NCBI GenBank assembly: GCA_040219255.1
Contig: JAVJSW010000056.1
Span: forward strand, 1-64,000
Source: Sumerlaeia bacterium
GTDB lineage: Bacteria > Sumerlaeota > Sumerlaeia > SLMS01 > JAHLLQ01
DNA length: 64,000 nt
Direction: 5' to 3'
In this document: piece by piece, positions 17,397-39,752 of the stretch
Position numbering within the stretch: the first letter of the stretch is position 1
Layout of the letters: every line of letters starts with the position of its first letter
Notes under the pieces: model-generated
Told to the model about the DNA's origin: nothing
The model's input: the letters and a program-made list of their open reading frames with translations, nothing else
Databases searched by the model: none
Program-made: the position numbers and the translations under genes

Positions 17397-17704
17397 TTCG
17401 CCACGGAGACCCAGAGGTACGAAGAGGTTTGATTATGATGAGGTTGCGAAGAATCATGGCTAGAAGCATTTGCTTGTCCGGACGACTGAGGAAAGCCAAC
17501 CCCTTTCAAAAAAAGAAATCGAAAAAGATCGGTGAAATCTTGAGAATCCACCCTTCATTTCTTAGTGTCGGAGTGAAACAGTTTGGCGGTAGTCTCATGT
17601 GTCCAGCCGTAGGTTGCTGATTTGATGCAACATAAAGGAAAATGCTCCGCTGACTTTTGATTCTTCTTTGTGAAACCTCTGTCCTCTGTGCGCTCTGGGG
17701 TGAA
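17397..17704. repeat. 308-bp element: inverted CRCAGAG-repeat arms (17397-17426, 17666-17704) around an AT-rich interior
   Basis: Reverse complement of the right arm matches 20601-20639 at 33/39 nt; a sample interior line is about 43% GC. Confidence 0.7.
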
Positions 17705-17812
17705 GGATCGCGGGGCCGCCCGGCGGGCGGTGCGCCTGTCCTTGACCCCTCGCCCCGGCGGCGCCATGGATGGCATCGAGTTTCACCCTGCCGTCTTTGG
17801 AGGACGCCCCCG

Positions 17813-18295
17813 ATGGGATTGTTCGATAAGTTGTTTGGCCGCTCGAAGCCCGAGCCGGACGAGAAGTCCGGCGCCGACGCCTTCGACCCCGCGGAAGCCC
17901 CCACCATGTCCCGCGAGGAGCTGGAGAAGCACCTGAAGGATGCCCCGGAGAACGAAGACGAGGACTGGCAGAACCAGGGCACGCCCCAGGAAATGCAGCC
18001 CGCCGAAGTCCGCAAGGCTCTCGAAAGCGACAACCCCCCGGTCCTCCTCGATGTGCGCGAGGTCCCCGAACTCTCCGCCGACGGCTACATCCCCGGCAGC
18101 GTCCATATCCCCATGAGCGAAATCCAGGGCCGCGTCGGCGAACTCGATCCCGCCAAGCCCACCGTCGTTTACTGCCGCAGCGGTATGCGCAGCTTCGATG
18201 TCGGGTTCCTCCTGATCGAAAACGGCTTCAAAGACGTTTCGAACCTCAACGGCGGAATCCTCGAATGGGATGGCGAGAAAGCCTTCCCCCAATAA
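17813..18295 (+). CDS. Rhodanese-like domain protein
   Basis: LLDVRE..GYIPGSVHIP, VYCRSGMRS, LNGGILEW. Confidence 0.9.
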   Translation: MGLFDKLFGRSKPEPDEKSGADAFDPAEAPTMSREELEKHLKDAPENEDEDWQNQGTPQEMQPAEVRKALESDNPPVLLDVREVPELSADGYIPGSVHIPMSEIQGRVGELDPAKPTVVYCRSGMRSFDVGFLLIENGFKDVSNLNGGILEWDGEKAFPQ

Positions 18296-18319
18296 GTGCG
18301 CTCGACCGCGAACGACCCG

Positions 18320-20029
18320 ATGGATGGGACCACGAGTCCCTCCGAGCCAGAGAACGGCTCGCCCAGCGCGGCGGGCTGGGTTCTGACGCGCCGCCAGACC
18401 TATGGCGTACTTATCGCCCTGATGGCGTTCGGGTTTTTTCTCCGCGCCTGGGATATCAGTCTGACCCCCTACAACATTGACGAAGGCATCCTGTCGATCC
18501 TCGCCACCCAGGCGGCTTTTCTGCGCGCCGAGGAGGGCCCCGCGCTGCTGGGCCTGCCGCTCGTCGGCGTGCGCACCAGTTTCGGGTTCCACAACCCGCC
18601 CCTCTTGGTGTGGCTCTGCGCCATTCCCTTTCGCATCAGCGGCGACCCCCGCTTCGCCATGGTGCTCTTCGCCATGGCGGGCGCGGGAGCCATCGGCCTC
18701 GCCGGCGGAGCGGCCCGCCGCCTCTGGGGCAATTGGGCCGGCGTCGCGGCGGGGGCCTTGCTCGCCTTCTGCCCCAACGCGATCGAACACAGCCGCCGCC
18801 TCTGGGGCCACGACACCATTCTTTTCTGGAGCGCGCTCAGCCTCTACACCGCCGTCCGCAGCATCCAGACCGGCCGTAAGCGATGGATGTGGACCAGCCT
18901 CGGCTGCGCCGCCTGCGCCCAGGCCTGCCATCTGTCCGGAGTCTTCCTGTGGATCGTGCCGCTCGGCGCTATGTGGCTGTTCCGCGTGCCCCATTGGAGG
19001 AAAACCCTCGCCGTGGCCGCCGCGGTGCTCCTGGCGATCTATCTGCCCTGGCTTGCCCATCAGGCCACCCCCGGCGCCGGCTCCGGCCGCGCGCCCTTCG
19101 ACGAAGTCGCCCTGATCGCCAAGGTCGCCCTCGGCCAGACCGCCATCGAGTCACGCCCCACGCAGATACCGCCCGCCCTCACCCTGGCGACGATCCTGGT
19201 GGACGGCTTTCACAGCGACCTCTTCGGCCGCGAATACGGCGCCTTTCTCTTCAACAAGGGCTGGTTCGCCCTGCTCTACGCCGCCGCCCAGGGAGTTCTC
19301 GCGGCGCTTTTGGCGGCCGGGCTGGCTTCGCTCCTGTTCCTGGCGCGGCGCGGGTGGAAATCCCCCGGCGAGGCGCAATGGCGCGCCAGCCGCTGGTCCG
19401 TGCTCCTGCTGGCGGCGGTCCTGACGCCCGTCGCCGCCTTCACCATCCTGCCGGTCGAATCCGTCCCGCCCTATCAGCTACCCGCCCTCGTGCCCGCCGC
19501 CCTCGCCGTGGCCCGCGTCATGGCCCGCGGGCGGCGCGACGCCCCCGTGCCCTACAGCCTCCCGCGGCTCGCCGTGCTCCTGACCGCGCTCACCTGCTTC
19601 GCGATGTTCGGAACCCTCTACACCAAGCGCTCGCTCGCCTACATCGAAGACGCCCGCTTTCAATCCGAAGTCTCCAGCGTTCTGCACTTCAAGATGGACG
19701 CCCTCGTCTACATCGTCGGCGAAGCCGCCAACCGGCCCTACAGCATCGCGCAGGACGGCCGCACGGAAGCCGTCGGCGTCGATTACTGGGTCGTGTACCT
19801 GCACTATTACATCAGCGGCGACCGCCGCCTGCCGGTCGATCGCAACGCCCCGGTGCTCTACGTGCTGCTCGACAGCAAGAGCACCCTGCGCCCCGAGGTC
19901 TCGGAATTCCTGCGCCACAAGGAGCAGGTCAATTTCGGCACCATCGGCGTGTTCCGCTTCGAGGGACTCGAAGCCCAGGCCTGGCGGGCGCTCGTGAACC
20001 AATTCCCCTCGGCCCGGCCGGGCCCATAG
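18320..20029 (+). CDS. ArnT/GT39-like polytopic membrane glycosyltransferase
   Basis: Multiple TM helices; DE motif after TM1 (NIDEG), HNPPL, SRRLW. Confidence 0.7.
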   Translation: MDGTTSPSEPENGSPSAAGWVLTRRQTYGVLIALMAFGFFLRAWDISLTPYNIDEGILSILATQAAFLRAEEGPALLGLPLVGVRTSFGFHNPPLLVWLCAIPFRISGDPRFAMVLFAMAGAGAIGLAGGAARRLWGNWAGVAAGALLAFCPNAIEHSRRLWGHDTILFWSALSLYTAVRSIQTGRKRWMWTSLGCAACAQACHLSGVFLWIVPLGAMWLFRVPHWRKTLAVAAAVLLAIYLPWLAHQATPGAGSGRAPFDEVALIAKVALGQTAIESRPTQIPPALTLATILVDGFHSDLFGREYGAFLFNKGWFALLYAAAQGVLAALLAAGLASLLFLARRGWKSPGEAQWRASRWSVLLLAAVLTPVAAFTILPVESVPPYQLPALVPAALAVARVMARGRRDAPVPYSLPRLAVLLTALTCFAMFGTLYTKRSLAYIEDARFQSEVSSVLHFKMDALVYIVGEAANRPYSIAQDGRTEAVGVDYWVVYLHYYISGDRRLPVDRNAPVLYVLLDSKSTLRPEVSEFLRHKEQVNFGTIGVFRFEGLEAQAWRALVNQFPSARPGP

Positions 20030-20060
20030 ACGGCCTCGCCTTGGCGCCTGGGGGCCCCTC

Positions 20061-20459
20061 TCAGGCCGGTTTCGCGTTCAGCTTATTGGCCACCAGCTTC
20101 AGCGCCATATGGTTGATTTCTTCCGGTTTGCGGATCATGAAGCCCAATTCCGCATGGCCCGGTTCGGTGGGCTTGCCGGGAATGTAGCGCGCCCAGAAAA
20201 TGTCGCCCTTCAGAATCAACGGCTGCACCAGAAAGGAAGCCCGCAGCGTGATCTTCGACACGTGCTTGAATTCCAGCAGCGTCTCGCACTCTTCCTTGCC
20301 CACTTCGCTGCTCGTCAACCGCACCCGCTCCGCGGAAATGCTGACCAGTTCGGCCTCCACATGGCGGGGCGTGAAAGTCTCGTAGGGGTTGATGATCGTC
20401 AGAACAATCTCGGCGGAGATGTCGGCGCTGGGGGGCATAGTCAGTGAACTCAAAGGCAT
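20061..20459 (-). CDS. Small cytoplasmic protein, degenerate PilZ-like beta-barrel
   Basis: AELVSISAERVRL, LKGDIFWAR and ELGFMI follow the PilZ strand pattern; canonical RxxxR/DxSxxG absent. Confidence 0.45.
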   Translation of the reverse strand: MPLSSLTMPPSADISAEIVLTIINPYETFTPRHVEAELVSISAERVRLTSSEVGKEECETLLEFKHVSKITLRASFLVQPLILKGDIFWARYIPGKPTEPGHAELGFMIRKPEEINHMALKLVANKLNAKPA

Positions 20460-20600
20460 AGGTTTTCGCGCGGGGGGAGAGGGAAAAATTATCGAAGCAG
20501 GCCCCCGCAAGCGCTCTCGCGGGAACAATCCATCCTGTTAGGCCACGGGCCGCGCTCCACGCAATGGTTTTCCCCCCGCCCCCACCGCGCTCCGCCATCC

Positions 20601-20906
20601 TTCACCACAGAGGACACAGAGGACAGAGGTTCCATAGAGATCATTATGAAAGGTGTGGTTGGGAAAGTGGGTTGTACGCACCAAGTCAAATGAAATCAGA
20701 AGGATGCGAATGAATCCCAAATCAGAACACTTGTCAGACGCAAACAAAGTCGCGGCAGTTCTGGCAGTTTCCTGCATCGATCATATCTCTTCAAAAGTAT
20801 CGCCCGCCGTTTTCCAGTCATCCAGCCAGGAACCGAGGCCCGCCGGTTGGTTCGGCTAATTTCAAAAGCGCCAAGCATCTCTGCGTTCTCTGCGTCTCAG
20901 CGGTGA
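20601..20906. repeat. 306-bp element: inverted CRCAGAG-repeat arms (20601-20639, 20879-20906) around an AT-rich interior
   Basis: TTCACCACAGAGGACACAGAGGACAGAG... and CTCTGCGTTCTCTGCGTCTCAGCGGTGA; a sample interior line is about 42% GC. Confidence 0.75.
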
Positions 20907-20982
20907 TTTCTTGAAGGATTAGGGACCGGACCGCGCTTCCGCACTTGACATGGTAACCGCCCGCGCCGTCTGCCATACTGCC

Positions 20983-21321
20983 ATGAACCGTTCCTCCTCC
21001 TCCCGCTCTCGCCAATCCCAAGCCAATCCCCCCGCCACCCGCCGCGAATGGGGACCCATCGCCTTCGCCTTCCTCGTCGTCGCCGGCCTCGCCGCCGGCT
21101 TCGCCCTGCTCTTTCCCGATGCCGTGAAGCGCCGCGCCCACGCCATGCAGGAGTTCCAGCGCGCCCAGATGGAACTCGACACCCTCGCCGCCCGCCGCGC
21201 CGAACTCGAAGCCCGTGTCGAAGCCCTTCAGGAAAGCGTCGACGCCGTCGAATTGCAGGCCCGCGTCGAGTACCGCCTCATCCACCGCGGCGAGAGAATC
21301 GAACTCATCCAGCCCTACTGA
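20983..21321 (+). CDS. Septum formation initiator (FtsB/DivIC family)
   Basis: Single TM, coiled coil, VELQARVEYRLIHRGE motif. Confidence 0.75.
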   Translation: MNRSSSSRSRQSQANPPATRREWGPIAFAFLVVAGLAAGFALLFPDAVKRRAHAMQEFQRAQMELDTLAARRAELEARVEALQESVDAVELQARVEYRLIHRGERIELIQPY

Positions 21322-21413
21322 CCCGACTCTTGCGTTCCATCTCCGCAAGGCCCCCACCGCCGCCCAACCCGCGGCGCCGGGCCGCGATCCCATCGCAACC
21401 CCGGAGAAACCCT

Positions 21414-22013
21414 ATGGATACCCTGAACATCACCTATCGAGGCCTCGAAAAGAACGACACGCTGGACAGCCTGATCCGAGAAAAAGCCGCCAAGCTGGAG
21501 CAGGTCCATAATGGTCTCACCACCGTCATCGTGGCCTTGGAAAAACCCAACGACATCGCTCGTTCGGGCAACGGATACCGCATGCGTGTGGACATGCGCC
21601 TGGCGGGCCGCGACCCGATCGTCGTCAAGGAAACCGCCAGCGAAGGCGAAAAGGACGAGGCAGCCGAGACTGTCGTCCGCAAAATCTTCGACCGCGCCTG
21701 GCGCGTGCTGCGCGACGTCAAGGAGCAGCAGGACGGCAAACGCAAAGCCCACCCCCACCAGCAGGTCCAGGGCTTCGTCAGCAAAATCTTCCCCGACGAC
21801 GATTACGGCTTCATCATGACGCCCAACGAGGACGAAATCTACTTTCACCGTCACGCCGTGGCCAACGACCGCTTCGACGACCTCGACGTCGGCACCGGCG
21901 TTTCCTTCACCCTGGGCGGCGAACCCGAGGAGGAGCAAGGCGCCCACGCCTCCACCGTCCACGCCATCCAAACCCCCGGCGGCAGCCAGGGCAACGTGGC
22001 GCGGGATTTGTAG
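21414..22013 (+). CDS. HPF/RaiA ribosome-associated domain fused to a cold-shock domain
   Basis: ITYRGLE..IREKAAKLE N-terminal domain; GFVSKIFPDDDYGFI..EIYFHRHAV cold-shock domain. Confidence 0.85.
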   Translation: MDTLNITYRGLEKNDTLDSLIREKAAKLEQVHNGLTTVIVALEKPNDIARSGNGYRMRVDMRLAGRDPIVVKETASEGEKDEAAETVVRKIFDRAWRVLRDVKEQQDGKRKAHPHQQVQGFVSKIFPDDDYGFIMTPNEDEIYFHRHAVANDRFDDLDVGTGVSFTLGGEPEEEQGAHASTVHAIQTPGGSQGNVARDL

Positions 22014-22020
22014 TCTCTCC

Positions 22021-22686
22021 TCACGCCGATCGCAACGCCGCCAACGCTTCCTCCATGACACCCGCGTCGCGCGGGTGGGCGCTCGTCGCCAGCAACTCGG
22101 CGGGCCGGTACTCGGCGCCATAGACGGCCACGGTGGCCTCCGGATTGGCGCCTGCCTCCCGCAAGATCCGGATCAGCGCCGGCAGATTGTGCGGCACGAT
22201 TTGGCGGATCAACTCGCAGCCGTTCGACCCGGCGTAATGCAGCAGCGTGAACCGGTGGCCAAACGGGGAACGGGCCGTCGCCAGCTCCGGCACCTGCTCC
22301 AGCAGCTCCGCCAGCCGCCTCTCGTTTCCCGCCAGCAGAGTCTCCACCGCGTCCTCGAAAACTGCGTTGGGCATCACCGCGGCGTCTTCCTCCGCATCGG
22401 CCCCATCGCGATACCCCCAATTGCGCGCCACCACGTCCTCGATCTGGCCGCGGCTCAGCTCCGCCTCGAGAATGTGCCCCGCCCCGCTTTGCGCGAACAC
22501 CGGGGCGTGATTGCGGATCTCGATGGCCGACAACGGATTGCCCGCCCGATACGCCGCCCACAGACTCTCCGCGTGCCGCTTCAGCAAACCCCCGACTGGT
22601 TCCTCCCACCAATTCGCCAGGAACATCGGCCGATGCAAATCGTGCACGGCCCGCACATCCACGGGAATGTAGAGGCTGGGCGGCAT
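22021..22686 (-). CDS. Ankyrin-repeat-like hypothetical protein
   Basis: LAELLEQVPELATAR, TLLHYAGSNGCE, ILREAGANPEA. Confidence 0.6.
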   Translation of the reverse strand: MPPSLYIPVDVRAVHDLHRPMFLANWWEEPVGGLLKRHAESLWAAYRAGNPLSAIEIRNHAPVFAQSGAGHILEAELSRGQIEDVVARNWGYRDGADAEEDAAVMPNAVFEDAVETLLAGNERRLAELLEQVPELATARSPFGHRFTLLHYAGSNGCELIRQIVPHNLPALIRILREAGANPEATVAVYGAEYRPAELLATSAHPRDAGVMEEALAALRSA

Positions 22687-22781
22687 AGGACGGCCTCACG
22701 ATCAAAGTCGGAATAGCTTATCGTTCGCGGGAACGCCCCTCTTTGCAAGCTCATTTCCGGGGCAGAGCGTGCGCCCGCCGA

Positions 22782-22865
22782 TGTCTCACACGTGTATCTT
22801 GTCTTTTTTGTCTTTCTTGCTCCCGAAGCGCCACATGAGGGGACAAACGGCCACGCCTGTGAGAG
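22782..22865 (-). repeat. Dispersed ~80-bp intergenic repeat, copy 1
   Basis: Reverse complement contains CCGTTTGTCCCCTCATGTGGCGCTTCGGGAGCAAGAAAGACAAAA, one mismatch to the copy at 39.5 kb. Confidence 0.85.
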
Positions 22866-22979
22866 CGTCTTTCCCAGAACAGCGGAAACATCCACCCCCC
22901 CCCGCACGGAGGACCCCACCCCATGACCGCCCCCCAACCCGCCAAGGAGCTGGCGAATTCTCCACCGGCTCCTCCACCT

Positions 22980-23017
22980 CTCTGTGAAGCCTCTGACCTC
23001 TGTGAATGTCAGTGGTT
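22980..23017. repeat. Solitary CRCAGAG-type arm (reverse complement AACCACTGACATTCACAGAGGTCAGAGGCTTCACAGAG)
   Basis: Same four-unit pattern as 20601-20639. Confidence 0.6.
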
Positions 23018-23109
23018 CGTACACCCCGTTCAGTCTTGCACCGCCCGCCTTTCCCTGTCATCCTGCCCAGTCTCCACAACCCCCTTCGAAAAGGACGTTG
23101 CCCCAAGCC

Positions 23110-24723
23110 ATGCCCTCCCTCAGACCGGCCGCTCTATTCTTGGGAGCCGCCACTCTTGCCATGACTTATCCCATCTATGCCCAGGGCGACCGCTATTACG
23201 CCTCGATCCACGATCTGCAGCGCGAGCCCATTTTCGAAGCTCGCGAAGCCGACTGGCGCAACGGCGCCCTGATCTACCAGGTCATCGTCGATCGCTTCGG
23301 CCCGCCGACAGAGGAAGAACTCGCCGCCAAACGCGATCTCTATCCCGCGCCCAAGCGCCTCCTGTCTTGGGATCAGCCCCCCACACGCGGCACCTACAAC
23401 CGCGACGTGGAGGTCTGGAGCCACGAAATCGACTTCTGGGGCGGCGACCTCAACACCCTCAGCCGCCATCTCGACTACGTCCACGAACTCGGCGTCGATG
23501 TCCTCTACCTCAACCCGATCCATCAAGCCTACACCAACCACAAATACGACGCCCAGGATTACAAGGAAGTGAGCGCCGAATACGGCACCCGCCAGGACGT
23601 CTTCGACTTGGCCGCGGACGTCCACGAGCGCGACATGAAGCTCGTCCTCGATGGCGTCTTCAACCACATGGGCCGCACGTCGCCCTATTTCCAGGAAGCG
23701 ATGACCGATCCCCAATCCCCCTATCGCGATTGGTTTTACGTCGGCGATGATTACCGCATGGGCTATCGCGGATGGGTCAACGTGGCGAACCTGCCGGAGC
23801 TGAACCTCGAAAACCCCCTCGTGCAGGACTACGTCTTCGCCACCAGCGACAGCGTCGTGCAGGGATACCTGCGCGGCGGGGTGGATGGCTGGCGCCTCGA
23901 TGTGGCCTTCGACATCGGCCCGGCGATTCTCGACGATCTGACCCGCGCCGCCCACACCGCCAGGCCCGGCTCCGTGGTGATCGGCGAAATCTGGAACTAT
24001 CCCGAGGAATGGATCCCCGCCGTCGACGGCGTGATGAACATGCACCTGCGCCAGATCCTCCTGGAACTCGTGCAGGGCCACGTCTCCGGCCCCCGCGCCG
24101 GCCGCATGGTCCAGACCATGATCGACGACACCGGCCTCGAGGGCATTCTGAAGAGCTGGCTCATTCTCGACAACCACGACACCCAGCGCCTCAAAACCGC
24201 CCTGCCGGAAACCTGGCAGCAGCGCATGGCGCAAACGCTCCAGATGACCCTGCCGGGCGCCCCCTGCATCTACTACGGCGTCGAAGTCGGCATGACCGGC
24301 GGCGACGACCCGGAGCAGCGCGGCCCCATGCGCTGGGACCTGGTCAGCGATGACAACGAAGACTACGTCTTCGCCCGCCAGCTCCTCGATCTGCGGGCGC
24401 GCACAAACCCCCGTAGCCGCTCGCTCCGCGTCGGCGACTTCCGCCTTCTCGACAGCGACAAACTCCTCGCCTTCATGCGCCGCACCGACCGCGTCGCGGA
24501 AACCTGCATCGTCATCGCCAACCCCACCAACAAACGCGTCACCGAATTCCTGCAAATCCGTGAGAGCAAACTCCTCGGCTCCCTCGTGGACGTCTTCACC
24601 GGCAAGGAAATCGGCCAAATGGCCAACACCGTCCGCGTCACCATCCCGGCGCAGACCACCTACGTGCTCTTCCCGAAAATCGACGAGGGCATCGAGTATT
24701 CGCCGTATATGCGGGTGCGGTAG
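23110..24723 (+). CDS. Secreted GH13 alpha-amylase/cyclomaltodextrinase-like enzyme
   Basis: Signal peptide; YQVIVDRF, GGDL, LDGVFNH, GWRLDVA (Asp), GEIW (Glu), DNHD (Asp). Confidence 0.9.
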   Translation: MPSLRPAALFLGAATLAMTYPIYAQGDRYYASIHDLQREPIFEAREADWRNGALIYQVIVDRFGPPTEEELAAKRDLYPAPKRLLSWDQPPTRGTYNRDVEVWSHEIDFWGGDLNTLSRHLDYVHELGVDVLYLNPIHQAYTNHKYDAQDYKEVSAEYGTRQDVFDLAADVHERDMKLVLDGVFNHMGRTSPYFQEAMTDPQSPYRDWFYVGDDYRMGYRGWVNVANLPELNLENPLVQDYVFATSDSVVQGYLRGGVDGWRLDVAFDIGPAILDDLTRAAHTARPGSVVIGEIWNYPEEWIPAVDGVMNMHLRQILLELVQGHVSGPRAGRMVQTMIDDTGLEGILKSWLILDNHDTQRLKTALPETWQQRMAQTLQMTLPGAPCIYYGVEVGMTGGDDPEQRGPMRWDLVSDDNEDYVFARQLLDLRARTNPRSRSLRVGDFRLLDSDKLLAFMRRTDRVAETCIVIANPTNKRVTEFLQIRESKLLGSLVDVFTGKEIGQMANTVRVTIPAQTTYVLFPKIDEGIEYSPYMRVR

Positions 24724-24736
24724 GGGGATAAGCGGA

Positions 24737-24833
24737 CACGGAGGCCGGGGAGGTTGGAGATTCACGGAGGGAGAGACTGAGCCCAACCCCCCAAATCATG
24801 CATTCGCTCCGCGCCCTCCGTGCCTCTGCGGTT
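24737..24833. repeat. 97-bp element with inverted CRCRGAG-repeat arms (24737-24769, 24807-24833)
   Basis: CACGGAGGCCGGGGAGGTTGGAGATTCACGGAG / CTCCGCGCCCTCCGTGCCTCTGCGGTT. Confidence 0.6.
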
Positions 24834-24873
24834 ATATTCTTCTGAAAGCCCGCAACACCTCTCTATTGCAAAA

Positions 24874-24889
24874 TGGCCCACTCGTCGCT
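24874..24889 (+). promoter_or_regulatory. Possible sigma54 element TGGCCCACTCGTCGCT
   Basis: Correct GG/GC spacing upstream of the bEBP gene; non-consensus -12. Confidence 0.25.
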
Positions 24890-24933
24890 TAGAAGTGTTT
24901 CCATCCTCGGCATAGCAGGAGAAGTGTTTCGCC

Positions 24934-26343
24934 ATGAGCCATTCCATTCTGATCGTTGACGACGAAAAGAACACACGCGAGGGCCTCAAGTGGGCCCTGG
25001 AGAGTCAGGCCGGCGCGATCTCCCTGGCCGAAGACGGCGAAAAAGCCCTCCTTCTCCTTGGGGAAAAGCAGCCCGACCTCGTCCTCACGGACCTGAAAAT
25101 GCCCAAGATGGGCGGCATGGAACTGCTCCAGCACATCCGCGAAGAATTCCCGACCACCGACGTCATCATCCTGACCGGCCACGGGACCGTGGAAACCGCC
25201 GTGGAGGCCATGAAGCTCGGCGCCAGCGATTACCTGCTCAAGCCGGTCAATCTGGACGAACTGAACCTGATCGTGAAGCGCGTTTTCGAATCGCGCGAAC
25301 TGCGTCAGGAGAACGAGCGGCTGCGCGCCGAAGTGAACGAGCGCTACGGGTTCGAGAACATCGTCGGCAATTCGCCGCCCATGGAGCGCATTTTTACCAT
25401 GATCCGCCAAGTCGCCCCCACCAAGGCCAGTGTGCTGATCGACGGCGAAACCGGCACCGGCAAGGAACTCGTGGCCCGCGCCATCCACTACAACAGCCCC
25501 CGCCGCAACCGCCCCTTCGTGGCGGTCAACTGCGGCGCGCTGAGCCAGACCCTGCTCGAGAGCGAACTGTTCGGCCACGAGAAAGGCAGCTTCACCGGCG
25601 CCGTGCGCCAGCGCGCCGGGCGCTTCGAAGCCGCCGACAAGGGCACCATCTTCCTCGACGAAATTGGCGAAACGACCCCGGAATTCCAGGTCAAGCTGCT
25701 GCGCGTCCTGCAAGAGCAGGAATTCGAACGCGTCGGCGGCAGCAAACCCGTCAAGACCGACGTGCGCATCATCGCCGCCACGAACCGCGACCTGAAGGAC
25801 GAGGTGGAAAAGGGCAACTTCCGCGAGGACCTCTACTATCGCCTCAACGTGATCCGCATCGCCCTGCCCGCGGTGCGCGAACGCAACGACGACATTCCGC
25901 TCCTGGCGACGCAATTTCTCAAGGAATTCAACAAGGAACACGGCCGCGACCTGACCATTTCGCCGAAAGCCATGATGCTCCTGCGGGCCTACTCCTGGCC
26001 CGGCAACGTCCGCCAACTCCGCACCATGATGGAGAGCATCTGCATCCTGACCCCAGGCAAGGAAATCCTGCCCAAGCACCTGCCCGAAGAGCTGCGCGGC
26101 GAGGACGCGCAAGGCAACGAGCTGAAACTGCAAGTCGGCATGACGGTGCGCGAGGCCGAGCGGGAACTGATCCGCGCGACCCTGGCGGAATTCAACGGCA
26201 ACAAAGCCAAAGCCGCCCGCGTCCTCGGCCTCGGCCGCAAGACCCTCTACCGCAAGCGGGAAGAATACGCCTTGGAAGGCGGCCGGGGCGACGATGAGGG
26301 GATCGGCGAAGAAGAAGAGGAGCTGGCGGAGGCGGGAGCGTAA
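24934..26343 (+). CDS. Sigma54-dependent response regulator (NtrC/ZraR/AtoC family), no adjacent kinase
   Basis: Receiver (VDDE, TDLKMP, KP); GETGTGKE; [15 protein letters not shown]; FLDEIG; WPGNVRQL; Fis HTH. Confidence 0.93.
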
Positions 26344-26357
26344 GCACCGCGCCCCCG

Positions 26358-27011
26358 TCAGGCCTCGCTCCAGCCGTACCCCTGCATGTCTTCCTTGGGA
26401 TGATCGAGGGCGATGTCGCCCACGTCGATAAAGTGCCCCACAAAGACCTCGGTTCCCTCCTCGCCGTATTCGATGGTGACGGTGGTTTCGCCTTGGCTGG
26501 CGTCGACGTAGGGAAAGCGGCGGTTTTCCGAGACGAGGAAAGGCAGGCTGCCTTCGGCACCTTCGAAGTGGGCTTCGTCGCGTTCGTCCACAAAGACCGC
26601 CTGGCCGGCGATGGTTGCGCGCGAACCGGGGTTGAGGGACTGGAGCGGCGGCACGGCGCCGGGGTTTTCGATGGTGCGCTCCAGGCTGTACTCCTGCTCA
26701 TCCTCCACGATCCAGCCGAAACCGCCGTCGTCGTAACGCAGATACCATTCGTCCCAGAACCCGCGCGAGTAGCGGTAGCGCACGCGGCCGATGATATCAA
26801 AGGCTTTGCCTTTGATATGGCCGGTGGCGTGGACGTAGAGCGGCGTGGGGTATTCGACCAGGATGGCCATTTCGCCCATGGCCAGAATGGCCTCGTCCTT
26901 AAAGTAGAAGGCCGAGCCGCAGTAGTCGCAGACGGCCATCTGGGCGAAGCGGTCGATTTGGTCGGATTTGGCGCCGCAGGAGGGGCAGTTGGCTTTCTTG
27001 TAGGTTTGCAT
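26358..27011 (-). CDS. Zn-ribbon + DUF4178-like protein
   Basis: CPSCGA/CDYCGS; [20 protein letters not shown]; EGSLPF. Confidence 0.75.
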
Positions 27012-29534: not shown

Positions 29535-29597
29535 CCCTTTCCCGCCAGACCCCGCTCGGCAGGCTCTTGGCTGACCGGACGGGAATCAAGGCACTCG

Positions 29598-31187: not shown

Positions 31188-31191
31188 GGCG

Positions 31192-32091: not shown

Positions 32092-32177
32092 AGGGGGTGA
32101 CTCCTGTATTCTAAAGTCAGTGAGGGTGATGTCTCGTTTGGGATCGGATGAGTTGGAGCAAAGGTCGAGCCGTAGCG

Positions 32178-32897: not shown

Positions 32898-33122
32898 AGC
32901 GGGTCGGTTCTCGATCGAAGCAATGGGGAGCGACAAAGTCGGAATTCCATCGGCGAGCGAACCAGCAGGCCATGAGGCGTGCAAAGCGGGAAAGTGTGGA
33001 CCTGGGTATTCTTTCAGCGCTTTCGTTTCGCAAACCATTCCAGGCAAAAGGAAATCATTGATCCCGAAAGTCAGGCCGGGCATGCCTTTTCAATCTATGG
33101 CAAGCCCCCAGGAGTTGCCCCC

Positions 33123-34502
33123 ATGCCCGTTTCACTTTCCGCCGCCGCTCGCGCGGCGATGCTCGGTCTCTGCACGATGACCGCTGTGCCCGCCGTCTCC
33201 GCGCCGCTGCCGGAAGAACGCATCGCCGACGACCCGGAATTGACCCGCATGGTGGAGGAAACGCGCGCCGAATTTCTCGCCCGGCGCCCCTTCGACCGGC
33301 TCAATGCCACGGTTCTCATTCCCTCTCCCGAGGGCGGCGGCACCTGGCTGCGGGGTTCCTACGGAGCGGACGAACTTCAGTACCCCGCCAGTTGCGTCAA
33401 GCTCCCGTTCCTGGCCGCCGCCATGCACTGGAGCCGCGAAAACGGCCTGCCCTACGATCACCTCGACGAGCACCTGCGCCCCATGATCGAGGTGTCGGAC
33501 AATGTAGCCACCGGCCACGTGATGGACGCGATTTCCGGCACCACCAATTTCCAGGAGGGCGAAACCGGCGCACCGCCCTATGGCGAATGGCTCGAAATGC
33601 GCCGCTACGCCGAGCGCGCCCTGGCTTCTCGCGGCTTGCTGGGCAATCAGTCGATGGTCACCAAGACCTACCCGACCAACACCGGCGACACGCCCAATGG
33701 CTACGAGGGCAGGGCGCGCGAGGAACTGGGCGCGAACATGCTGCAGGCGGGGCTGTCGGCGTCGTTGATGCTCGACATCGTCACTGGCGGCTGGGAGCAG
33801 GAAGCGACCGAGTACATGGGCTCGCTGCTGGAGCACCCGCGCTACTCGCCGCACAGCGCCTTCGGCCCCGCCATTCCGCCCGGCTCCGTGTACCTGAACA
33901 AGTACGGCGTGGCCTACGACACGCTCGAGGAAATCGCCTACGTCAAATTCCCCAACGGCCGCGAAGCCATCCTGTCGGTCTTCACCAACGGCCGCGATCG
34001 CACGGAAGACGAAGACTATTACGTCACCATGCTGTCGGCCTACGCCGAGCTGGTTTTCGAGCGCCTGGGCATGTACGAGGGCACCGGGCGGATCGTGCTG
34101 GACAACGAGGACGAACAGTTCTCGGCCAGCGGCCCGTTCTCACAGCGCGAGAACAAGGGCGACGGCTACGGCCCCTCCTTCCTCACCGCGCCGGCCAACA
34201 CGGAAGCCTCCGCGGTGGCCCTCTTCGAAGTGCCCGCACCCGGGAAATACGAAGTCTGCGTGTGGTGGAGCGATGGCCCCGACCGCTCCGATGACGCCCG
34301 GTTCACCATCCACCACGACCGCGGCCCGGCGATTTTACCGGTCGATCAGCAGAAGCGGGGCGGAGTCTGGGTCCGGTTGGGCGAATACTCCTTCACCGAA
34401 GGCGGCATGGTCTCAATCGCCCCCGGCGCAAGTTCGCCGGCCGCACTGACCGTCGCCGACGCCATCCGGCTCTTTCCCGCAGCGGAGCCCGACGGGGACT
34501 AG
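33123..34502 (+). CDS. Class A beta-lactamase-like serine hydrolase + C-terminal golvesin/CBM-like domain
   Basis: Signal peptide; PASCVKL (SxxK), SDN, NKYG; IVLDNED..GKYEVCVWW..VDQQKRGGVWVRLG..VADAIR. Confidence 0.8.
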   Translation: MPVSLSAAARAAMLGLCTMTAVPAVSAPLPEERIADDPELTRMVEETRAEFLARRPFDRLNATVLIPSPEGGGTWLRGSYGADELQYPASCVKLPFLAAAMHWSRENGLPYDHLDEHLRPMIEVSDNVATGHVMDAISGTTNFQEGETGAPPYGEWLEMRRYAERALASRGLLGNQSMVTKTYPTNTGDTPNGYEGRAREELGANMLQAGLSASLMLDIVTGGWEQEATEYMGSLLEHPRYSPHSAFGPAIPPGSVYLNKYGVAYDTLEEIAYVKFPNGREAILSVFTNGRDRTEDEDYYVTMLSAYAELVFERLGMYEGTGRIVLDNEDEQFSASGPFSQRENKGDGYGPSFLTAPANTEASAVALFEVPAPGKYEVCVWWSDGPDRSDDARFTIHHDRGPAILPVDQQKRGGVWVRLGEYSFTEGGMVSIAPGASSPAALTVADAIRLFPAAEPDGD

Positions 34503-34519
34503 GACGGACGCGCCGGCCC

Positions 34520-34891
34520 CTACTCCCCCCGCCGGTGATCCTTCAACACCGCCAGCAGCCCCGGAATGCCCGCCATAAAGGTGCTGTTGGGCAGCACCTG
34601 ATCCGCACCGGCACGGCGCGCGTCGCGGATCAGATCGGTCATCACATGGCTGCAAAACCCCACCACGCGCGCCTGCGGAGCCGCCGCCTTCGCCGCCTCG
34701 ATCACCGCGACGGCGTCCGTGCCCTCGCGGTCCAGATCGATCAGGATCAGCTCCAGCCGAGGTCCCACCTCCGCCACGCGCGCGGCGAATTGCTCGTCGG
34801 AGGCCACATGCGCGGTCTCCACCGCATAGTGGGTCGCGGCAAGATCGATGCGGCTGCGGACGAGGAGGTCGGGGGTGTAGGCGAGGAGCAT
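34520..34891 (-). CDS. Stand-alone atypical receiver-domain protein
   Basis: ILIDLD, GFCSH, ARRAGADQV; conserved Lys absent. Confidence 0.65.
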   Translation of the reverse strand: MLLAYTPDLLVRSRIDLAATHYAVETAHVASDEQFAARVAEVGPRLELILIDLDREGTDAVAVIEAAKAAAPQARVVGFCSHVMTDLIRDARRAGADQVLPNSTFMAGIPGLLAVLKDHRRGE

Positions 34892-35172
34892 CAGGAGGAG
34901 GAGGCCGTACTTCTCCGCGCGTGGAATTCAGACAGGGAGCCTGTGGACGACTTGCGAAGTTCTTCCAGCTTTTTTGCCAGACGATCGGGCCAGTCCGACT
35001 GAGGGGCGCCACTGATGATCGGTTCCGCCACGGGAATTCCAGGATTGGCGAGAGCCAGAATTTCGAGCGCGAGTTCTTCCCAGAGACCGTAGGTCAGCCG
35101 GTTCTCGTCCTCAGCCCGATGAATCCGAGCGAAGAGCCGTTGAATCGCTTGCAGGCGTTGATCGAAGGTCAT
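34891..35172 (-). CDS. Small helical hypothetical protein (MTFDQRLQAI..., 93 aa)
   Basis: ATGA overlap with the upstream HEXXH gene and TGATG overlap with the downstream receiver gene. Confidence 0.55.
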   Translation of the reverse strand: MTFDQRLQAIQRLFARIHRAEDENRLTYGLWEELALEILALANPGIPVAEPIISGAPQSDWPDRLAKKLEELRKSSTGSLSEFHARRSTASSS

Positions 35173-35735
35173 GGTTTCCAACTCCTGAGGATGCTCAAGG
35201 TGCGCTCTATCAAGATGAACCCACCGGAGTCGCCACCCCGCAGGATCTCGGGATTGATCGCATAGAGTGACAGACATTCGCAATCGTATTCGGATTCGTT
35301 GACTCGGCCGTAGATCGTCATGCAATTCGTCGAGTGGGTTTCGAATGCCCTGGAGATGATGCGGCGAAGCGGGTGGAATTGCGAGGTCAAGTGGTGCCCC
35401 AGCTCGTGGAAGAAGGCGGCGCGAATCGCCTCGCCACGGCTCTGTGCAGCCCAAGGCGCCGCAAAAAACAGTCCCGCCTGCCAATTTCGGCCATAATCCG
35501 GATTGGAGTTCAGTCGAATGGTCTTCTGGGTGCGGTCATACAGCCCGTCGATCCTTTCCCCAAACCGGTCGGCCAGATCAGCGACGATCTCCACGGATTG
35601 TACAGGATGCCGGGACAACGCGGGAATCAGCCCAAGAGCCTCACACTGAAGCGCGCAGTCGCGGAAAACCTGATCGTCGTGCGAGCCGCGACGACACACG
35701 AAATTTATCCAGGGCGATTGGCTCTCGCTGCTCAT
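35169..35735 (-). CDS. Zincin-like HEXXH metallopeptidase-domain protein
   Basis: GLYD..TIRLN, FFHELGHHL, TIYGRVNESEYDCE (resembles the SxYAxxNxxExFAE third-ligand motif). Confidence 0.6.
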   Translation of the reverse strand: MSSESQSPWINFVCRRGSHDDQVFRDCALQCEALGLIPALSRHPVQSVEIVADLADRFGERIDGLYDRTQKTIRLNSNPDYGRNWQAGLFFAAPWAAQSRGEAIRAAFFHELGHHLTSQFHPLRRIISRAFETHSTNCMTIYGRVNESEYDCECLSLYAINPEILRGGDSGGFILIERTLSILRSWKP

Positions 35736-35883
35736 CTTTCTCCCAAGCGAAGGATTTCATGCTTTGCCACGACGTTTCATTTCCCAAGCAAGTCGCGGAA
35801 GCAACAGTTGCCTTTGACCTTGCCGGGTCTTCGTCCGAATCTCTCAAGCCCAGTCACCTGACAGAAGGCTCGCCAGTTACTTC

Positions 35884-37650
35884 GTGTCCCCCCGCCCCCC
35901 CTACACCCTCGGCCTTTCCGCCCTCTACCACGACTCCGCCGCCGCCCTCGTTGGGCCGGGGGGAGAGGTGTTGGCGGCGGCTCATGAGGAGCGCTTCACG
36001 CGCCGGCGCCACGATGCGGCGTTTCCCCGCGAGGCCATCGCCTACTGCCTCGCCGAGGCCGGCATCGGGCCCACCGATCTCTCGGCCATCGTGTTTTACG
36101 AGAAGCCGTTCACGAAATTTCTCGACCGCTTTCTGATCAATCACATCGCCGAGTGGCCGCGCAGTCTGGCGCCGTTTCTCGAGGCCGTGCCGTCGTGGAT
36201 GGGCGAGAAGTTTTGGCTGCCATATGAGCTGGCCAAGGCCGGGCTGTTCCGCGTGCCCGTGCGTTATGTGACGCATCACGAGAGCCACGCCGCCAGCGCC
36301 TTCCTGCCCAGCCCCTTCGAGCAGGCCGCCATCGTGACCTGCGACGGCGTGGGCGAATGGAGCACGACGACGGTGGGCTTTGGCGAGGGCGACGATTTCG
36401 TCCTGACGCAGGAGGTGCGCTTTCCCCACTCGCTCGGGCTGCTCTATTCCACCATGACGGCTTACCTGGGTTTTCGCGTGAACAGCGCGGAATACAAGGT
36501 GATGGGGCTGGCGCCCTATGGCGAACCGACGATGGTGGATAAGTTCCGCAAACTGTGCCATCTGCATGCCGATGGTTCGTTTCATCTGGATATGCGGTAC
36601 TTCCGGTTCCATCGCAGTCTGCGCATGCCGACGCGGGCGTTGGAGGAGCTGTTCGGCGCGCCCTGCCGCCGGGGCGAGGACGAGCCCCTGACGCAGTTCC
36701 ACAAGGACTGCGCCCGCAGCCTGCAGGAATTCACCAACGAGGCGATGCTGGGCCTGGCGCGGCGGGCGCACGCGTCGTTCCCGGGGACGAAGAATCTGGT
36801 GATGGCGGGCGGCGTGGCGCTCAATTGCGTATCGAACAGCTACATCCTCGAGCACGGCCCCTTCGACAACATCTGGGTCCAGCCCGCCGCCGGCGACGCC
36901 GGAGGGGCCGTGGGCGGGGCGTTGATGGTGGCGCGGGAAATCGACCCGGATTTCCGCCGCCACGAAATGGCCCATGTGGCTCTCGGTCCGGCTTTCGGCG
37001 ACGCGGCGATCCGCGAGGCGATGGAGGAGCAGGGCCTGCCCTATCGCGAAATGGCGAGCGACGAGGAATTGATCGAATACCTGGCGGATCGCCTCGTCGA
37101 GCAGGCCATCGTCGGTTGGTTCCAGGGCCGCATGGAATACGGCCCCCGGGCGCTCGGCAACCGGTCGATTCTGGCCGATCCGCGGGCGCCGGAAAACCGC
37201 GACCGGGTCAATCTGGCGATCAAATTCCGCGAGAGCTTCCGCCCCTTCGCCCCCGCCGTGCCCGAGGACGCCGTCGGGGATTGGTTCGATTGGCGCGGGC
37301 CATCGCGCTTCATGCTCTTCACCGCCACCACGCGTGAGCCCGAGCGCCTGCCCGCCATCGCCCATGTGGATGCGTCGGCGCGGCTGCAGACCGTGACGCG
37401 CGAGCACACGCCGCTGTACTACGACCTGCATCGCGCCTTCGAACGGCGCACCGGCGTTCCGGTCCTCATTAACACCAGCTTCAACGTGCGGGGCGAACCG
37501 ATCGTCTGCACGCCGCGCGACGCCGTGGCGACGTTCCTGGGCACGCACATCGACGTGCTGGCGATGGGGCGGTTCGTGGCGGAGAAGCGCGAGGTCCCCC
37601 GCGAGGCGCTGCGCGTCGAGGCGCACCGCACGGCGTTCAAGCCGGACTGA
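35884..37650 (+). CDS. O-carbamoyltransferase (NodU/CmcH/TobZ family)
   Basis: HDSAAA, EERFTR, HHESHAASAF, EYKVMGLAPYG, GGVALNC, GPRALGNRS, FRPFAP, NTSFNVRGEP. Confidence 0.93.
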   Translation: MSPRPPYTLGLSALYHDSAAALVGPGGEVLAAAHEERFTRRRHDAAFPREAIAYCLAEAGIGPTDLSAIVFYEKPFTKFLDRFLINHIAEWPRSLAPFLEAVPSWMGEKFWLPYELAKAGLFRVPVRYVTHHESHAASAFLPSPFEQAAIVTCDGVGEWSTTTVGFGEGDDFVLTQEVRFPHSLGLLYSTMTAYLGFRVNSAEYKVMGLAPYGEPTMVDKFRKLCHLHADGSFHLDMRYFRFHRSLRMPTRALEELFGAPCRRGEDEPLTQFHKDCARSLQEFTNEAMLGLARRAHASFPGTKNLVMAGGVALNCVSNSYILEHGPFDNIWVQPAAGDAGGAVGGALMVAREIDPDFRRHEMAHVALGPAFGDAAIREAMEEQGLPYREMASDEELIEYLADRLVEQAIVGWFQGRMEYGPRALGNRSILADPRAPENRDRVNLAIKFRESFRPFAPAVPEDAVGDWFDWRGPSRFMLFTATTREPERLPAIAHVDASARLQTVTREHTPLYYDLHRAFERRTGVPVLINTSFNVRGEPIVCTPRDAVATFLGTHIDVLAMGRFVAEKREVPREALRVEAHRTAFKPD

Positions 37651-37935
37651 AGCGCGTTTGCCACGCGAAGGGCGGCAAGGCGCGGAGGCGCAACGGCTTG
37701 TGGGCATGAAGGCTCCCGCCCTTGTTTGGGCCATTCTCGCCATCTTGAATCGCGGGAACGGCCCTTGGCGGACCCGCCGCGTTCTCTGGTTGGATTCCAT
37801 ACGCGCAGCCGCCCTTTCGGTGACGCATCGAGCCACCGGAAGCCGCAAGGCTGTCCTTGCTTCGCGGCCGCCGGGGGCGGAACACTGCGCCGCTGATTTC
37901 ATCAGCTCGATTCCCCCGGAGGTCCCGCCCCAATC

Positions 37936-38481
37936 ATGCCCGTCATTCCCTTTGAAGGCCGTGTTCCGCGCATTCATCCGAGCGCCTTTATCGCTCCCAC
38001 GGCGGTGATTATCGGCGACGTCGAAATCGGCGAGGGCGCCTCGATCTGGTACGGTTGCGTGCTGCGCGGCGACCTGGACCCGATTCGCGTCGGCGACCGC
38101 AGCAACGTCCAGGACAACAGCGTTCTGCACACGAGCCGCGGGGCGCCATGCATCGTGAAGAACGATGTCACCATCGGCCACATGGCGATGCTGCATGGCT
38201 GCACGATCGAGCACGGCTGCCTGATCGGCATGAGCGCCATCGTGCTGGACTACGCGGTCGTCGGGCCCGATTGTCTGGTGGGCGCGGGGTCGCTGGTGAC
38301 GAAGGGCAAGATCTTCCCGCCGCGCCAGATGATCCTGGGCTCGCCGGCGAAGGCCATCCGCGACTTGACGGAGGAAGAAATCGCCCAGGACATGGACAAC
38401 CACGCCCGCTATGTGACGAACGGCCAGCGCCACACGCGCATGCTGGAGGAATGGACCGCCAAGACGGGCTGGCGATGGTAG
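37936..38481 (+). CDS. Gamma carbonic anhydrase family protein (YrdA/PaaY-like)
   Basis: IGDVEIG, LRGD, SNVQDNSVLH, TIGHMAMLHGC, GSPAK. Confidence 0.9.
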   Translation: MPVIPFEGRVPRIHPSAFIAPTAVIIGDVEIGEGASIWYGCVLRGDLDPIRVGDRSNVQDNSVLHTSRGAPCIVKNDVTIGHMAMLHGCTIEHGCLIGMSAIVLDYAVVGPDCLVGAGSLVTKGKIFPPRQMILGSPAKAIRDLTEEEIAQDMDNHARYVTNGQRHTRMLEEWTAKTGWRW

Positions 38482-38556
38482 GAACGGCGCCGGGGGCGGT
38501 GGGCGCGGGGCGCGGGAACCGATTCGGACAAGGCCTGAATGTGAGGCTCGGCAATC

Positions 38557-39357
38557 ATGGCGGATAAGAAACTGGCGCTGATCACGGGGGCGTCGAGCGG
38601 CATCGGGGCCGATCTGGCCCGCGAGCACGCCCGCCGCGGCGGGGACTTGATTCTGGTGGCGCGCCGGGCCGAGAAGCTGGAGGCGCTGAAGGCCGCCCTG
38701 GAGGCGGACCATGGCGTCACGGTGCACGTGATGGCGCGGGACCTGGCGGTGGCGAACGCGGGCGAAGACCTGCACGCGGCGGTGCGCGAGGCCGGCCTGG
38801 AGGTCGATTACCTGATCAACAACGCCGGCTTCGGCGGCCACGGCGCGTTCCATGAGCGGCCGTGGACGGAGGACAAGGCGATGGTGCAGCTCAATATCGA
38901 AACGCTGACGGCGCTGACGCGGGCGTTTCTGCCGGGGATGGTCGAGCGCGGCAGGGGCAGGGTGCTGAACGTGGCGTCCACGGCGGCGTTCCTGCCGGGG
39001 CCGCTGATGGCGGTGTATTACGCCACGAAGGCCTACGTGCTCTCGCTGAGCGAGGCGCTGGCCAGCGAACTGCGGGGCACCGGGGTCACGGTCACGGCGC
39101 TCTGCCCCGGCGTCACCCGCACAGAGTTCGGGGCGCGGGCCAACGTCGGCGACTCCAAGCTCTTCCGTGGCCCCTGGGTCGCCGGGTCGGCGGCCGTCGC
39201 GGCTTTCGGGTACCGGGCGATGCTGGCCGGCCGAGTCGTCGCCGTGCACGGGTTCTGGAACAAGGTCGCGGCGCACGTGGCCCTGCCGCTCCTGCCCAAG
39301 CCGGTCGTTCGGCGGGTCTCCCTCCTTCTGACGGAGAAGGTCAAAAAACGCTCGTAG
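38557..39357 (+). CDS. Short-chain dehydrogenase/reductase
   Basis: TGASSGIG, NNAG, YYATK. Confidence 0.92.
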   Translation: MADKKLALITGASSGIGADLAREHARRGGDLILVARRAEKLEALKAALEADHGVTVHVMARDLAVANAGEDLHAAVREAGLEVDYLINNAGFGGHGAFHERPWTEDKAMVQLNIETLTALTRAFLPGMVERGRGRVLNVASTAAFLPGPLMAVYYATKAYVLSLSEALASELRGTGVTVTALCPGVTRTEFGARANVGDSKLFRGPWVAGSAAVAAFGYRAMLAGRVVAVHGFWNKVAAHVALPLLPKPVVRRVSLLLTEKVKKRS

Positions 39358-39410
39358 CTTGGCGAGGCGTTGCGCTTCCCGTTCGGTGGCGTCATCCGCC
39401 GCCTGGACGC

Positions 39411-39470
39411 TGCTCTTATCGGGGGTGCTCTTGTCGGGGGTGCTCATGGTGCGGGTGCTCCTGTGGTTGC
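39411..39470. repeat. Four tandem 15-bp units, each starting TGCTC
   Basis: TGCTCTTATCGGGGG TGCTCTTGTCGGGGG TGCTCATGGTGCGGG TGCTCCTGTGGTTGC. Confidence 0.7.
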
Positions 39471-39489
39471 GAGTCAGACAGGCGGGAGC

Positions 39490-39564
39490 CTCGCACAGGT
39501 GCCGCCGTTTGTCCCCTCATGTGGAGCTTCGGGAGCAAGAAAGACAAAATACACTTATCAGACA
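39490..39564 (+). repeat. Dispersed ~80-bp intergenic repeat, copy 2
   Basis: Inverted near-identical partner of 22782-22865. Confidence 0.85.
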
Positions 39565-39585
39565 ACGGAGGTGGAGGCGGGGGAA

Positions 39586-39752
39586 TTCACCGCAGAGGCG
39601 CGGAGAGCGCAGAGAAGTTTGGGATGATCAGAGTTATGAGGAGAAGTCTTGAGGGGCGATCCTTTTTGCGGGTGACTCATGAAGCTATGGCTCCTTGTGC
39701 CGGGAGGGGCGGGGGGGGTGGGATCTCGGTGTGCTCGGTGGCTCTGTGGTGA
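39586..39752. repeat. 167-bp element with inverted CRCAGAG-repeat arms (39586-39614, 39725-39752)
   Basis: TTCACCGCAGAGGCGCGGAGAGCGCAGAG / CTCGGTGTGCTCGGTGGCTCTGTGGTGA. Confidence 0.75.

Follow-up and report, generated by a model that had tools for sequence, protein, structure and literature searches.

What are the short segments, each closed off by facing arrays of a seven-base repeat, that sit between genes in a Sumerlaeia bacterium? The first 64,000 nucleotides of contig JAVJSW010000056.1 (assembly GCA_040219255.1, forward strand; hereafter the window) carry several such arm-spacer-arm doublets, which an initial annotation made from the sequence had proposed to be non-autonomous mobile or capture elements served by an enzyme acting in trans. 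In other genomes, doublets built from the same arms have been copied whole, are present or absent at orthologous sites, have been flipped in one case and sometimes enclose a gene of the GxxExxY family. On balance we lean towards reading the doublets as non-autonomous miniature mobile elements, analogous to the hairpin-forming doublets of repetitive extragenic palindromic sequences (REP; the doublets are called REPINs) and their REP-associated tyrosine transposases (RAYTs), with GxxExxY as the putative trans-acting enzyme.

Each arm opens with a leader rich in T (TTCAC, TGAAC or TAAC), behind which CRCRGAK units, three or four in number, recur every 7-11 bp; two arms normally face inward across a spacer whose sequence is free. 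A weight matrix trained on 55 arms, all from other genomes, and applied to the 64-kb window at a cut-off of 6 bits returned ten matches, every one an arm already placed by the initial annotation, and no further arms. Nine of the ten scored 14.9-33.6 bits; the best match in any of 30 null sequences had 12.1 bits, so that none attained 14. A scan for three CRCRGAK units with at most one mismatch gave six window matches, again all previously noted arms, and none in each of eight Markov-4 nulls. Both searches reproduce the two spacing patterns that had been described, 8/9 for three-unit (B-type) and 9/7/11 for four-unit (A-type) arms. A scan for clusters of any repeated unit found six, four of them known arms and two within GC-rich coding DNA. 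The window contains four clear doublets, a doubtful fifth and one orphan arm, the doublets measuring 57-330 bp; they are named E0 (10547-10603), E1 (17397-17704), E2 (20601-20906), E4 (24737-24833) and E5 (39586-39752), and are laid out as follows:

10547-10573, plus strand: E0 left arm, a 10-bp-period variant with units CGCGGAT/CGCTGAT/CGCGGAG; 14.9 bits
10578-10603, minus strand: E0 right arm, spacing 9/10, with 4 bp between the arms; 22.9 bits
17387-17426, plus strand: E1 three-unit (B-type) arm (17397-17426) with outer TTCAAGAAA (17387-17395); 15.5 bits
17427-17665, no strand: E1 interior, non-coding, 43% GC, from GC content and homology searches
17666-17708, minus strand: E1 four-unit (A-type) arm, spacing 9/7/11, with outer ATCC; 26.7 bits
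20597-20639, plus strand: E2 four-unit (A-type) arm (20601-20639) with outer ATCC; 33.6 bits
20640-20878, no strand: E2 interior, non-coding, 49% GC, from GC content and homology searches
20879-20915, minus strand: E2 three-unit (B-type) arm (20879-20906) with outer TTCAAGAAA; 25.1 bits
22980-23017, minus strand: lone A-type arm of four units (spacing 10/7/11), partner not detected; 12.0 bits
24737-24769, plus strand: E4 left arm, doubtful and degenerate, spacing about 9/7/10; below matrix detection
24807-24833, minus strand: E4 three-unit (B-type) arm; 30.8 bits
39586-39614, plus strand: E5 left three-unit arm, spacing 8/9; 32.3 bits
39725-39752, minus strand: E5 right arm of three units spaced 8/9, lying upstream of acpP-fabF-rnc; 24.5 bits

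The four strong pairs (10547/10603, 17402/17699, 20606/20902 and 39591/39748) all point inward, as had been claimed, an outcome with a chance probability of (1/4)^4, or about 0.004, if orientations were random. The arms are also non-coding throughout, given the likely ATG starts at 17813, 23110 and 40014. The pairing of E4 is less secure than originally described: its arm at 24737 was missed by the matrix, and its likeness to the four-unit arms was equalled in 5 of 2869 random windows and at the unremarkable stretch 22880-22960. The lone arm scores level with the null maximum and is recognised by its likeness to two four-unit arms.

E1 and E2 lie in opposite orientations and are probably, judging from their sequences, old copies of one element of about 320 bp that has retained its ends while its interior drifted. 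Their four-unit arms agree over 52 nt at 85%, and common sequence that the initial annotation overlooked extends beyond the arms, namely ATCC past the four-unit arm and TTCAAGAAA past the three-unit arm. The interiors had been called unrelated in either orientation. In the homologous orientation they are of borderline similarity in five of six settings (z 1.6-2.4; 0.1 in the sixth), against z -0.6 to 1.6 in the opposite orientation, and in an initial, less strict test the similarity was equalled in 2 of 500 shuffles; these values neither bear out nor contradict the earlier statement. The extreme ends of E2 form a perfect 8-bp inverted repeat, ATCCTTCA/TGAAGGAT (20597-20604 and 20912-20919), which is imperfect in E1 and is possibly the true terminus of the element.

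The inserts had further been described as AT-rich. With the window at 64% GC, this applies to E1 (43%) and E2 (49%), and not to E4 (57%) and E5 (56%), which resemble other intergenic DNA (52-68% in 14 of 15 stretches; the fifteenth, of 14 bp, has 93%). The proposal that the inserts are captured foreign DNA was not borne out, the E1 and E2 interiors giving nothing better than E 0.09 against plasmid and phage collections; E5 and the lone-arm region had no significant match in the plasmid collection, the only one searched with them, and E0 as query gave chance-level matches only. No homologue was found for a 78-aa open frame in E1.

Arms of this kind are widespread. BLAST searches with E2 recovered them in records from Bacteroides, Gemmatirosa, Sphingopyxis, Pseudoalteromonas and cyanobacteria, and the family spans Bacteroidota, Gemmatimonadota, Proteobacteria, Acidobacteriota and Cyanobacteria, mainly as intergenic inward doublets. 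A scan of GTDB genomes with a single pattern, that of the four-unit arm, returned four loci, none from the host lineage; one, in a Methylophilaceae genome, is an inward pair with a 96-bp spacer of 45% GC, another is a single arm whose apparent partner is cut by the contig end, and the remaining two, in Acidobacteria, are taken up below. Across 34 fetched loci (572 kb) we counted 93 strict arms. Their adjacent pairs are 32 inward, 3 outward and 13 same-way, and their clusters comprise 20 simple inward pairs, 12 singlets, 2 outward pairs and 11 groups of three or four arms containing an inward pair; as most of these loci were picked for an arm or for GxxExxY, and a few orthologues are counted twice, the figures speak to polarity and not to abundance. 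The inward polarity seen in the window is thus dominant elsewhere (32 of 48 adjacent pairs) without being universal. Arms are intergenic in 23 of the 25 cases checked against annotation (a comparison limited to the adjacent genes for five of the six loci), and they lie a few bases or less from stop or start codons. The 10-bp-period variant of E0 also occurs in Bacteroides finegoldii, where it pairs with its own kind, and Sphingopyxis and Gemmatirosa carry nested inward pairs.

Locus L003 (3155-3225) holds an inward pair of CACAARA units adjoining an outward CACAGAG pair, which suggests sister arm families. In the Pseudoalteromonas locus (L030, 2670-3400) a tandem repeat some 220 bp in size contains the arms. 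Chromosomal housekeeping genes are present in the 'plasmid' records of B. finegoldii (L005, L006, L016, L017 and L025-L028), which are probably mislabelled contigs.

The proposal of non-autonomous mobility finds its support in these other genomes, in dispersed whole copies, empty orthologous sites and one inversion. An 83-bp doublet recurs together with its spacer at two B. finegoldii loci unrelated to each other, and again in a third record, and the likeness of its copies reaches 6-25 bp past the arms, as it extends past the arms of E1 and E2; ORF-free doublets (those without an open reading frame, ORF) have also been copied whole in Gemmatirosa. The site between radA and an FAD-protein gene holds an arm-bracketed GxxExxY gene in B. 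finegoldii, 13 bp without arms in Parabacteroides distasonis and an unrelated gene, again without arms, in Phocaeicola. Likewise, the fabD-fabG site carries GxxExxY with arms in Sphingomonas parapaucimobilis and 31 bp in S. paeninsulae, and a doublet between gmd and fcl is missing from Phocaeicola. CRCRGAK arms were found at none of the four outgroup loci. The limits of the gene cassettes adjoin the stop and start codons of host genes; insertion timing and exact ends are loosely defined because the outgroups are other species or genera.

The gmd-fcl doublet also provides the inversion. Aligned as it stands, the B. finegoldii copy agrees with that of B. ovatus at 60 of 76 bases; once the segment is flipped, at any point 1-18 bases inside the ends, the agreement rises to 72 of 76; two further orthologous comparisons, of one doublet and one arm locus, showed no flip. 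A tract resembling homing was seen in Bacteroides at another site, where comparison with an orthologous scaffold gave 3 differences in 226 bp over a doublet and 306 in 2074 bp of flank. Among 25 pairs we found no constant target duplication, the true ends being uncertain; direct repeats of 3-5 nt within 12 nt of the ends were present in 21 of the 25, with varying length, often within the conserved leader and counted with no chance control.

The initial annotation mentioned similar arms beside GxxExxY genes, and this link was confirmed: inward arms bracket a GxxExxY gene in B. finegoldii, Bernardetia and S. parapaucimobilis. The 375-bp gene of B. finegoldii lies between inward arms that start with TTCACCACAGAGGAC, as in E2, and arm-bracketed GxxExxY is AT-rich in that species (30% against 43% GC); the S. 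parapaucimobilis arms use the unit CGCGAAG, and in Gemmatirosa one whole doublet stands on either side of the gene. A doublet enclosing GxxExxY is the arrangement that would be expected of an autonomous member of the family. These loci come from a tblastn search that found GxxExxY in 8 of 72,556 plasmid records, several of them annotated with chromosome-type genes; no match was found in 50,697 phage records. GxxExxY is the sole gene seen wholly within inward arms in the fetched loci, eight of which were fetched for that gene. The GxxExxY genes of Prevotella, Persicobacter and Fusobacteria (L013 4850-5530, L014 and L015) are flanked by other short repeats, not by CRCAGAG arms.

A further trace of the association is found in the proteins themselves. 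We searched the terminal extensions of 150 diverse GxxExxY proteins for peptides that an arm could encode, in comparison with shuffled controls. Of the 72 N-terminal extensions, 15 contain forward-arm peptides, against 2 with reverse-arm and 1.85 with shuffled ones (Fisher p 0.001). Of the 73 C-terminal extensions, 13 contain reverse-arm peptides, against 3 with forward-arm and 1.95 with shuffled ones (Fisher p 0.015). This orientation is the one predicted by inward arms. As a measure of the link, the figures are a lower bound because only arms that overlap a called ORF, and only one unit type, are visible in this way.

The arm-bracketed protein, of 125 aa, is a full member of the GxxExxY family (PF13366, PDDEXK_3, Pfam E 1.9e-43; TIGR04256, E 3e-46), of which the window holds none. 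The family comprises 20,988 clusters at 50% identity (E up to 0.001). No sequence match was found in the PDB; a structural model (predicted local distance difference test, pLDDT, 96) shows a minimal PD-(D/E)XK fold, for which Foldseek placed Cas4 SSO0001 nearest (E 3e-4) with lambda exonuclease also close, and VIA-align tied Cas4, BpuSI and CinB at Z 7.8-7.9 (Cas4 SSO0001: Z 7.9, root-mean-square deviation 3.5, 99 residues aligned). Residues E29, D69, E79 and K81 are invariant among 95 sequences, and the D..ExK motif is present in 131 of 150 relatives. About 21 of the 150 (including P0241-P0253) are tandem two-domain fusions, in none of which a catalytic-motif pattern matched twice. PADLOC models gave nothing better than E 0.002. 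In earlier reports, the function of GxxExxY is given as unknown (PMC3424549) and the gene is noted as the neighbour of a reverse transcriptase (10.1101/2021.01.26.428298).

Under the favoured reading, the iterated units would be recognised by the GxxExxY PD-(D/E)XK nuclease supplied in trans. The enzyme would cut at or near the outer ends, close to the outer leader, either on duplex DNA or on a stem formed by the two arms, and host repair or recombination would complete the event as an inversion, as copying to a new or orthologous site, or as an exchange of spacers. Such a cut-and-repair route fits better than a DDE transposase because the ends are fuzzy, there is no constant duplication and the Bacteroides tract resembles co-conversion. 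A stronger version, which we regard as possible but tentative, takes GxxExxY to be the catalyst for a class of mobile DNA that has not been described before, and the window doublets to be its non-autonomous members; here a Cas4-like nuclease of 125 aa would read arrays of 7-bp units, in groups of differing unit-sequence specificity, and together with host repair the DNA between inward arms, including its own gene, would be inverted, copied and homed.

Several observations weigh against this preferred reading. Multi-unit inward arms accompany only 3 of the 8 GxxExxY loci and flanking doublets 1 of the 8, the others having single inward units (1 of 8) or other or no evident repeats (3 of 8), and in S. 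parapaucimobilis the gene-flanking unit is unlike that of doublets elsewhere. A profile search covering the 64 kb of the window found neither a GxxExxY gene nor a remnant of one, so that the enzyme is hypothetical in this organism. Partner arms in the window are no more alike than arms across elements (permutation p 0.38), in contrast to B. finegoldii, where partners match within pairs (0 of 20000 permutations). The fold score of 7.9 lies inside the range that the tool deems common. PD-(D/E)XK nucleases cut but are not known to carry out a strand-joining step. The data on mobility all come from other genomes; no empty site was found for any window element, the GTDB scan having returned nothing from the host lineage, and the homing-like tract is found on one unverified metagenomic scaffold that could be chimeric. 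Since the outer 18 bp are the longest identical stretch of the flipped doublet, homologous recombination predicts the same crossover window, and an inversion limited to the outer ends suits a site-specific recombinase at least equally well. Finally, the arms at the two Acidobacteria loci form outward pairs 27-29 bp apart.

The strongest alternative, which we consider less likely, is that the arms are recombination sites of a gene-cassette system whose separate recombinase or integrase is encoded elsewhere. GxxExxY would then be just a frequent passenger, maybe a nuclease acting in defence or as a toxin, and the window doublets would be empty or decayed cassettes. An inversion crossover within the outer 18 bp and the lack of a constant target duplication would be natural for such a system, as would the nested inward pairs of Sphingopyxis and Gemmatirosa, the head-to-head outward junctions in Acidobacteria, cassette limits at host stop and start codons, and the lack of these arms at three of the eight GxxExxY genes. 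Four-helix-bundle and other small genes also occur among short tandem repeats, and tandem inverted repeats that flank genes and are linked with a small recombinase may already have been described; if so, the novelty of the present elements would be lower and the cassette explanation stronger. Against this, no gene other than GxxExxY was seen to lie entirely within inward arms, in a set that includes eight loci fetched for it. The lack of a PADLOC match better than E 0.002 also speaks against it. Integron cassettes form arrays beside an integron integrase and are bounded by attC sites; a scan of 80 window ORFs, out of 252 listed with at least 80 aa, showed no transposase, integrase or recombinase family, HUH tyrosine transposases and integron integrases included.

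It is less probable still that the doublets are regulatory or structural elements of the host, acting as mRNA stem-loops or as sites for a host protein, and that their inversion and spread are passive, through hairpin-driven template switching and homologous recombination. E0 folds as a single hairpin (z -9.5) and E5 pairs end to end (z -5.6), arms lie near stop and start codons, partner arms match in B. finegoldii and a regulatory role has been proposed for the TAACTGA heptamer repeats of Beggiatoaceae (PMC4679880). Against this, folding is weak in E1, E2 and E4 (z -0.9 to -2.8), and no Rfam family covers the arms: the window has no Rfam match at gathering score and no tRNA, and in nine external loci Rfam found two tRNAs and nothing over the arms. 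Compensatory changes are absent in three copies, which are too similar for a good test, and in the window the position of the elements relative to gene direction varies. No sigma-70 promoter was predicted within 17300-25000, and terminator-like sites are at chance level (9 against 6.6 +/- 2.4). A regulatory role would also leave unexplained both the oriented link to GxxExxY and the sporadic spread across phyla.

Coding remnants were sought in the inserts and not found: 24 read-through frames matched Pfam at chance level only (E 0.07 or worse), and tblastn with 150 GxxExxY relatives gave four weak window matches, none inside an element. We therefore consider it very unlikely that the window doublets are eroded footprints of independent cassettes of GxxExxY or other small genes, with the ORF decayed and the non-coding units never mobile as such: the AT-rich interiors of E1 and E2, like arm-bracketed GxxExxY genes, and their near-equal lengths and weak colinear similarity would suit that origin, but no GxxExxY profile match occurs in the window or in other doublet interiors (24 loci), no frame rises above chance, ORF-free doublets have been copied whole in B. 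finegoldii and Gemmatirosa, and the E0 spacer is only 4 bp long.

Compared with known systems, the preferred reading has its nearest parallel in REPINs and RAYTs (Nunvar et al, 2010, PMC2817692; Bertels and Rainey, 2011, PMC3116915). REPINs, too, are intergenic inverted doublets with a variable spacer and the capacity to form hairpins, in which doublets outnumber singlets and higher-order clusters occur, and RAYTs are likewise small enzyme genes flanked by their own repeats in inverted orientation. The arms described here differ from REP sequences in being direct runs of 7-bp units behind a TTCAC/TGAAC/TAAC leader, with neither a palindrome nor a GT(A/G)G head; the arm-flanked gene encodes a PD-(D/E)XK protein and not an HUH tyrosine transposase, and the hosts differ. 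They cannot be counted as REP members because there is no palindrome, no GTAG head and another enzyme class.

[quoted passage not shown] Dispersed copies are seen here in B. finegoldii and Gemmatirosa, while E1 and E2 of the window are alike at their ends only. Unlike MITEs, the doublets end in imperfect unit arrays, the two ends differing in E1 and E2; no constant target duplication was seen, no cognate insertion sequence was identified, and their common sequence extends 4-25 bp beyond the arms. For want of a clear duplication and a cognate insertion sequence they cannot be classed as MITEs. Invertons (Chanin et al, 10.1101/2023.03.11.532203) resemble them in that inverted repeats enclose a segment which occurs in either orientation, in Bacteroides as well; here the orientation changes between species and not within a culture, the elements are also dispersed as copies, and neither an invertase nor an invertible promoter was identified. 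The TAACTGA heptamers of Beggiatoaceae (MacGregor, 2015, PMC4679880) are similarly short intergenic runs of 7-bp units with a patchy spread across phyla, but they are contiguous direct repeats of another unit, upstream of start codons and almost never in inverted pairs.

The elements of the window lie among ordinary genes: E0 between yaaA and an Lhr-like helicase gene, and the others between a metallo-beta-lactamase-fold exonuclease gene and a rhodanese gene; an uncharacterised gene and one resembling DivIC; an amylase gene and that of a sigma-54 regulator; and a short-chain dehydrogenase/reductase gene and acpP-fabF-rnc. The named best matches of the FabF protein are mainly from Candidatus Sumerlaeota (63-68% identity), as expected if, as is probable, the host is of this phylum. 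The helicase, exonuclease and an ATP-dependent ligase gene belong to a set at 8051-17359, which we take to be a ligase-associated DNA damage cluster; the set is split, with yaaA and E0 between ligase and helicase. A second dispersed repeat, of 65 bp, is also present:

22801-22865, minus strand: copy 1, 114 bp from the lone arm; 89% complementary to 39490-39554
39490-39554, plus strand: copy 2, 31 bp beyond the left arm of E5; from pairwise comparison

The copies have opposite orientations and contain a run of CAAGAAAGA/CAAAAAAGA with a 9-bp period. Both lie in arm-bearing intergenic regions, in differing geometry, and neither had a significant plasmid match. Elsewhere, a stretch of low GC (56000-56950; 43-49% in 100-bp windows) without arms lies within an ORF (55682-58024) that weakly matches the Chlamydia polymorphic membrane protein (PMP) repeat.

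A literature search, largely of open-access main texts, found no description of these repeats or of their link to GxxExxY. In many phyla the doublets lie inside operons that are conserved, where they undergo insertion, inversion and perhaps homing; they may thus contribute to genome variation in a way that has been overlooked, and their arms account for spurious peptide tails on predicted proteins. The arms are also a concrete candidate substrate, so that the function of GxxExxY becomes directly testable. Should GxxExxY turn out to be the enzyme, the feature would be new in category: a nuclease of 125 aa that drives mobility would rank among the smallest enzymes of this kind and might serve as a part for genome engineering, and the result would give a function to about 21,000 protein clusters (at 50% identity) and add a new mobility chemistry beside those of the DDE, HUH, tyrosine and serine enzymes.

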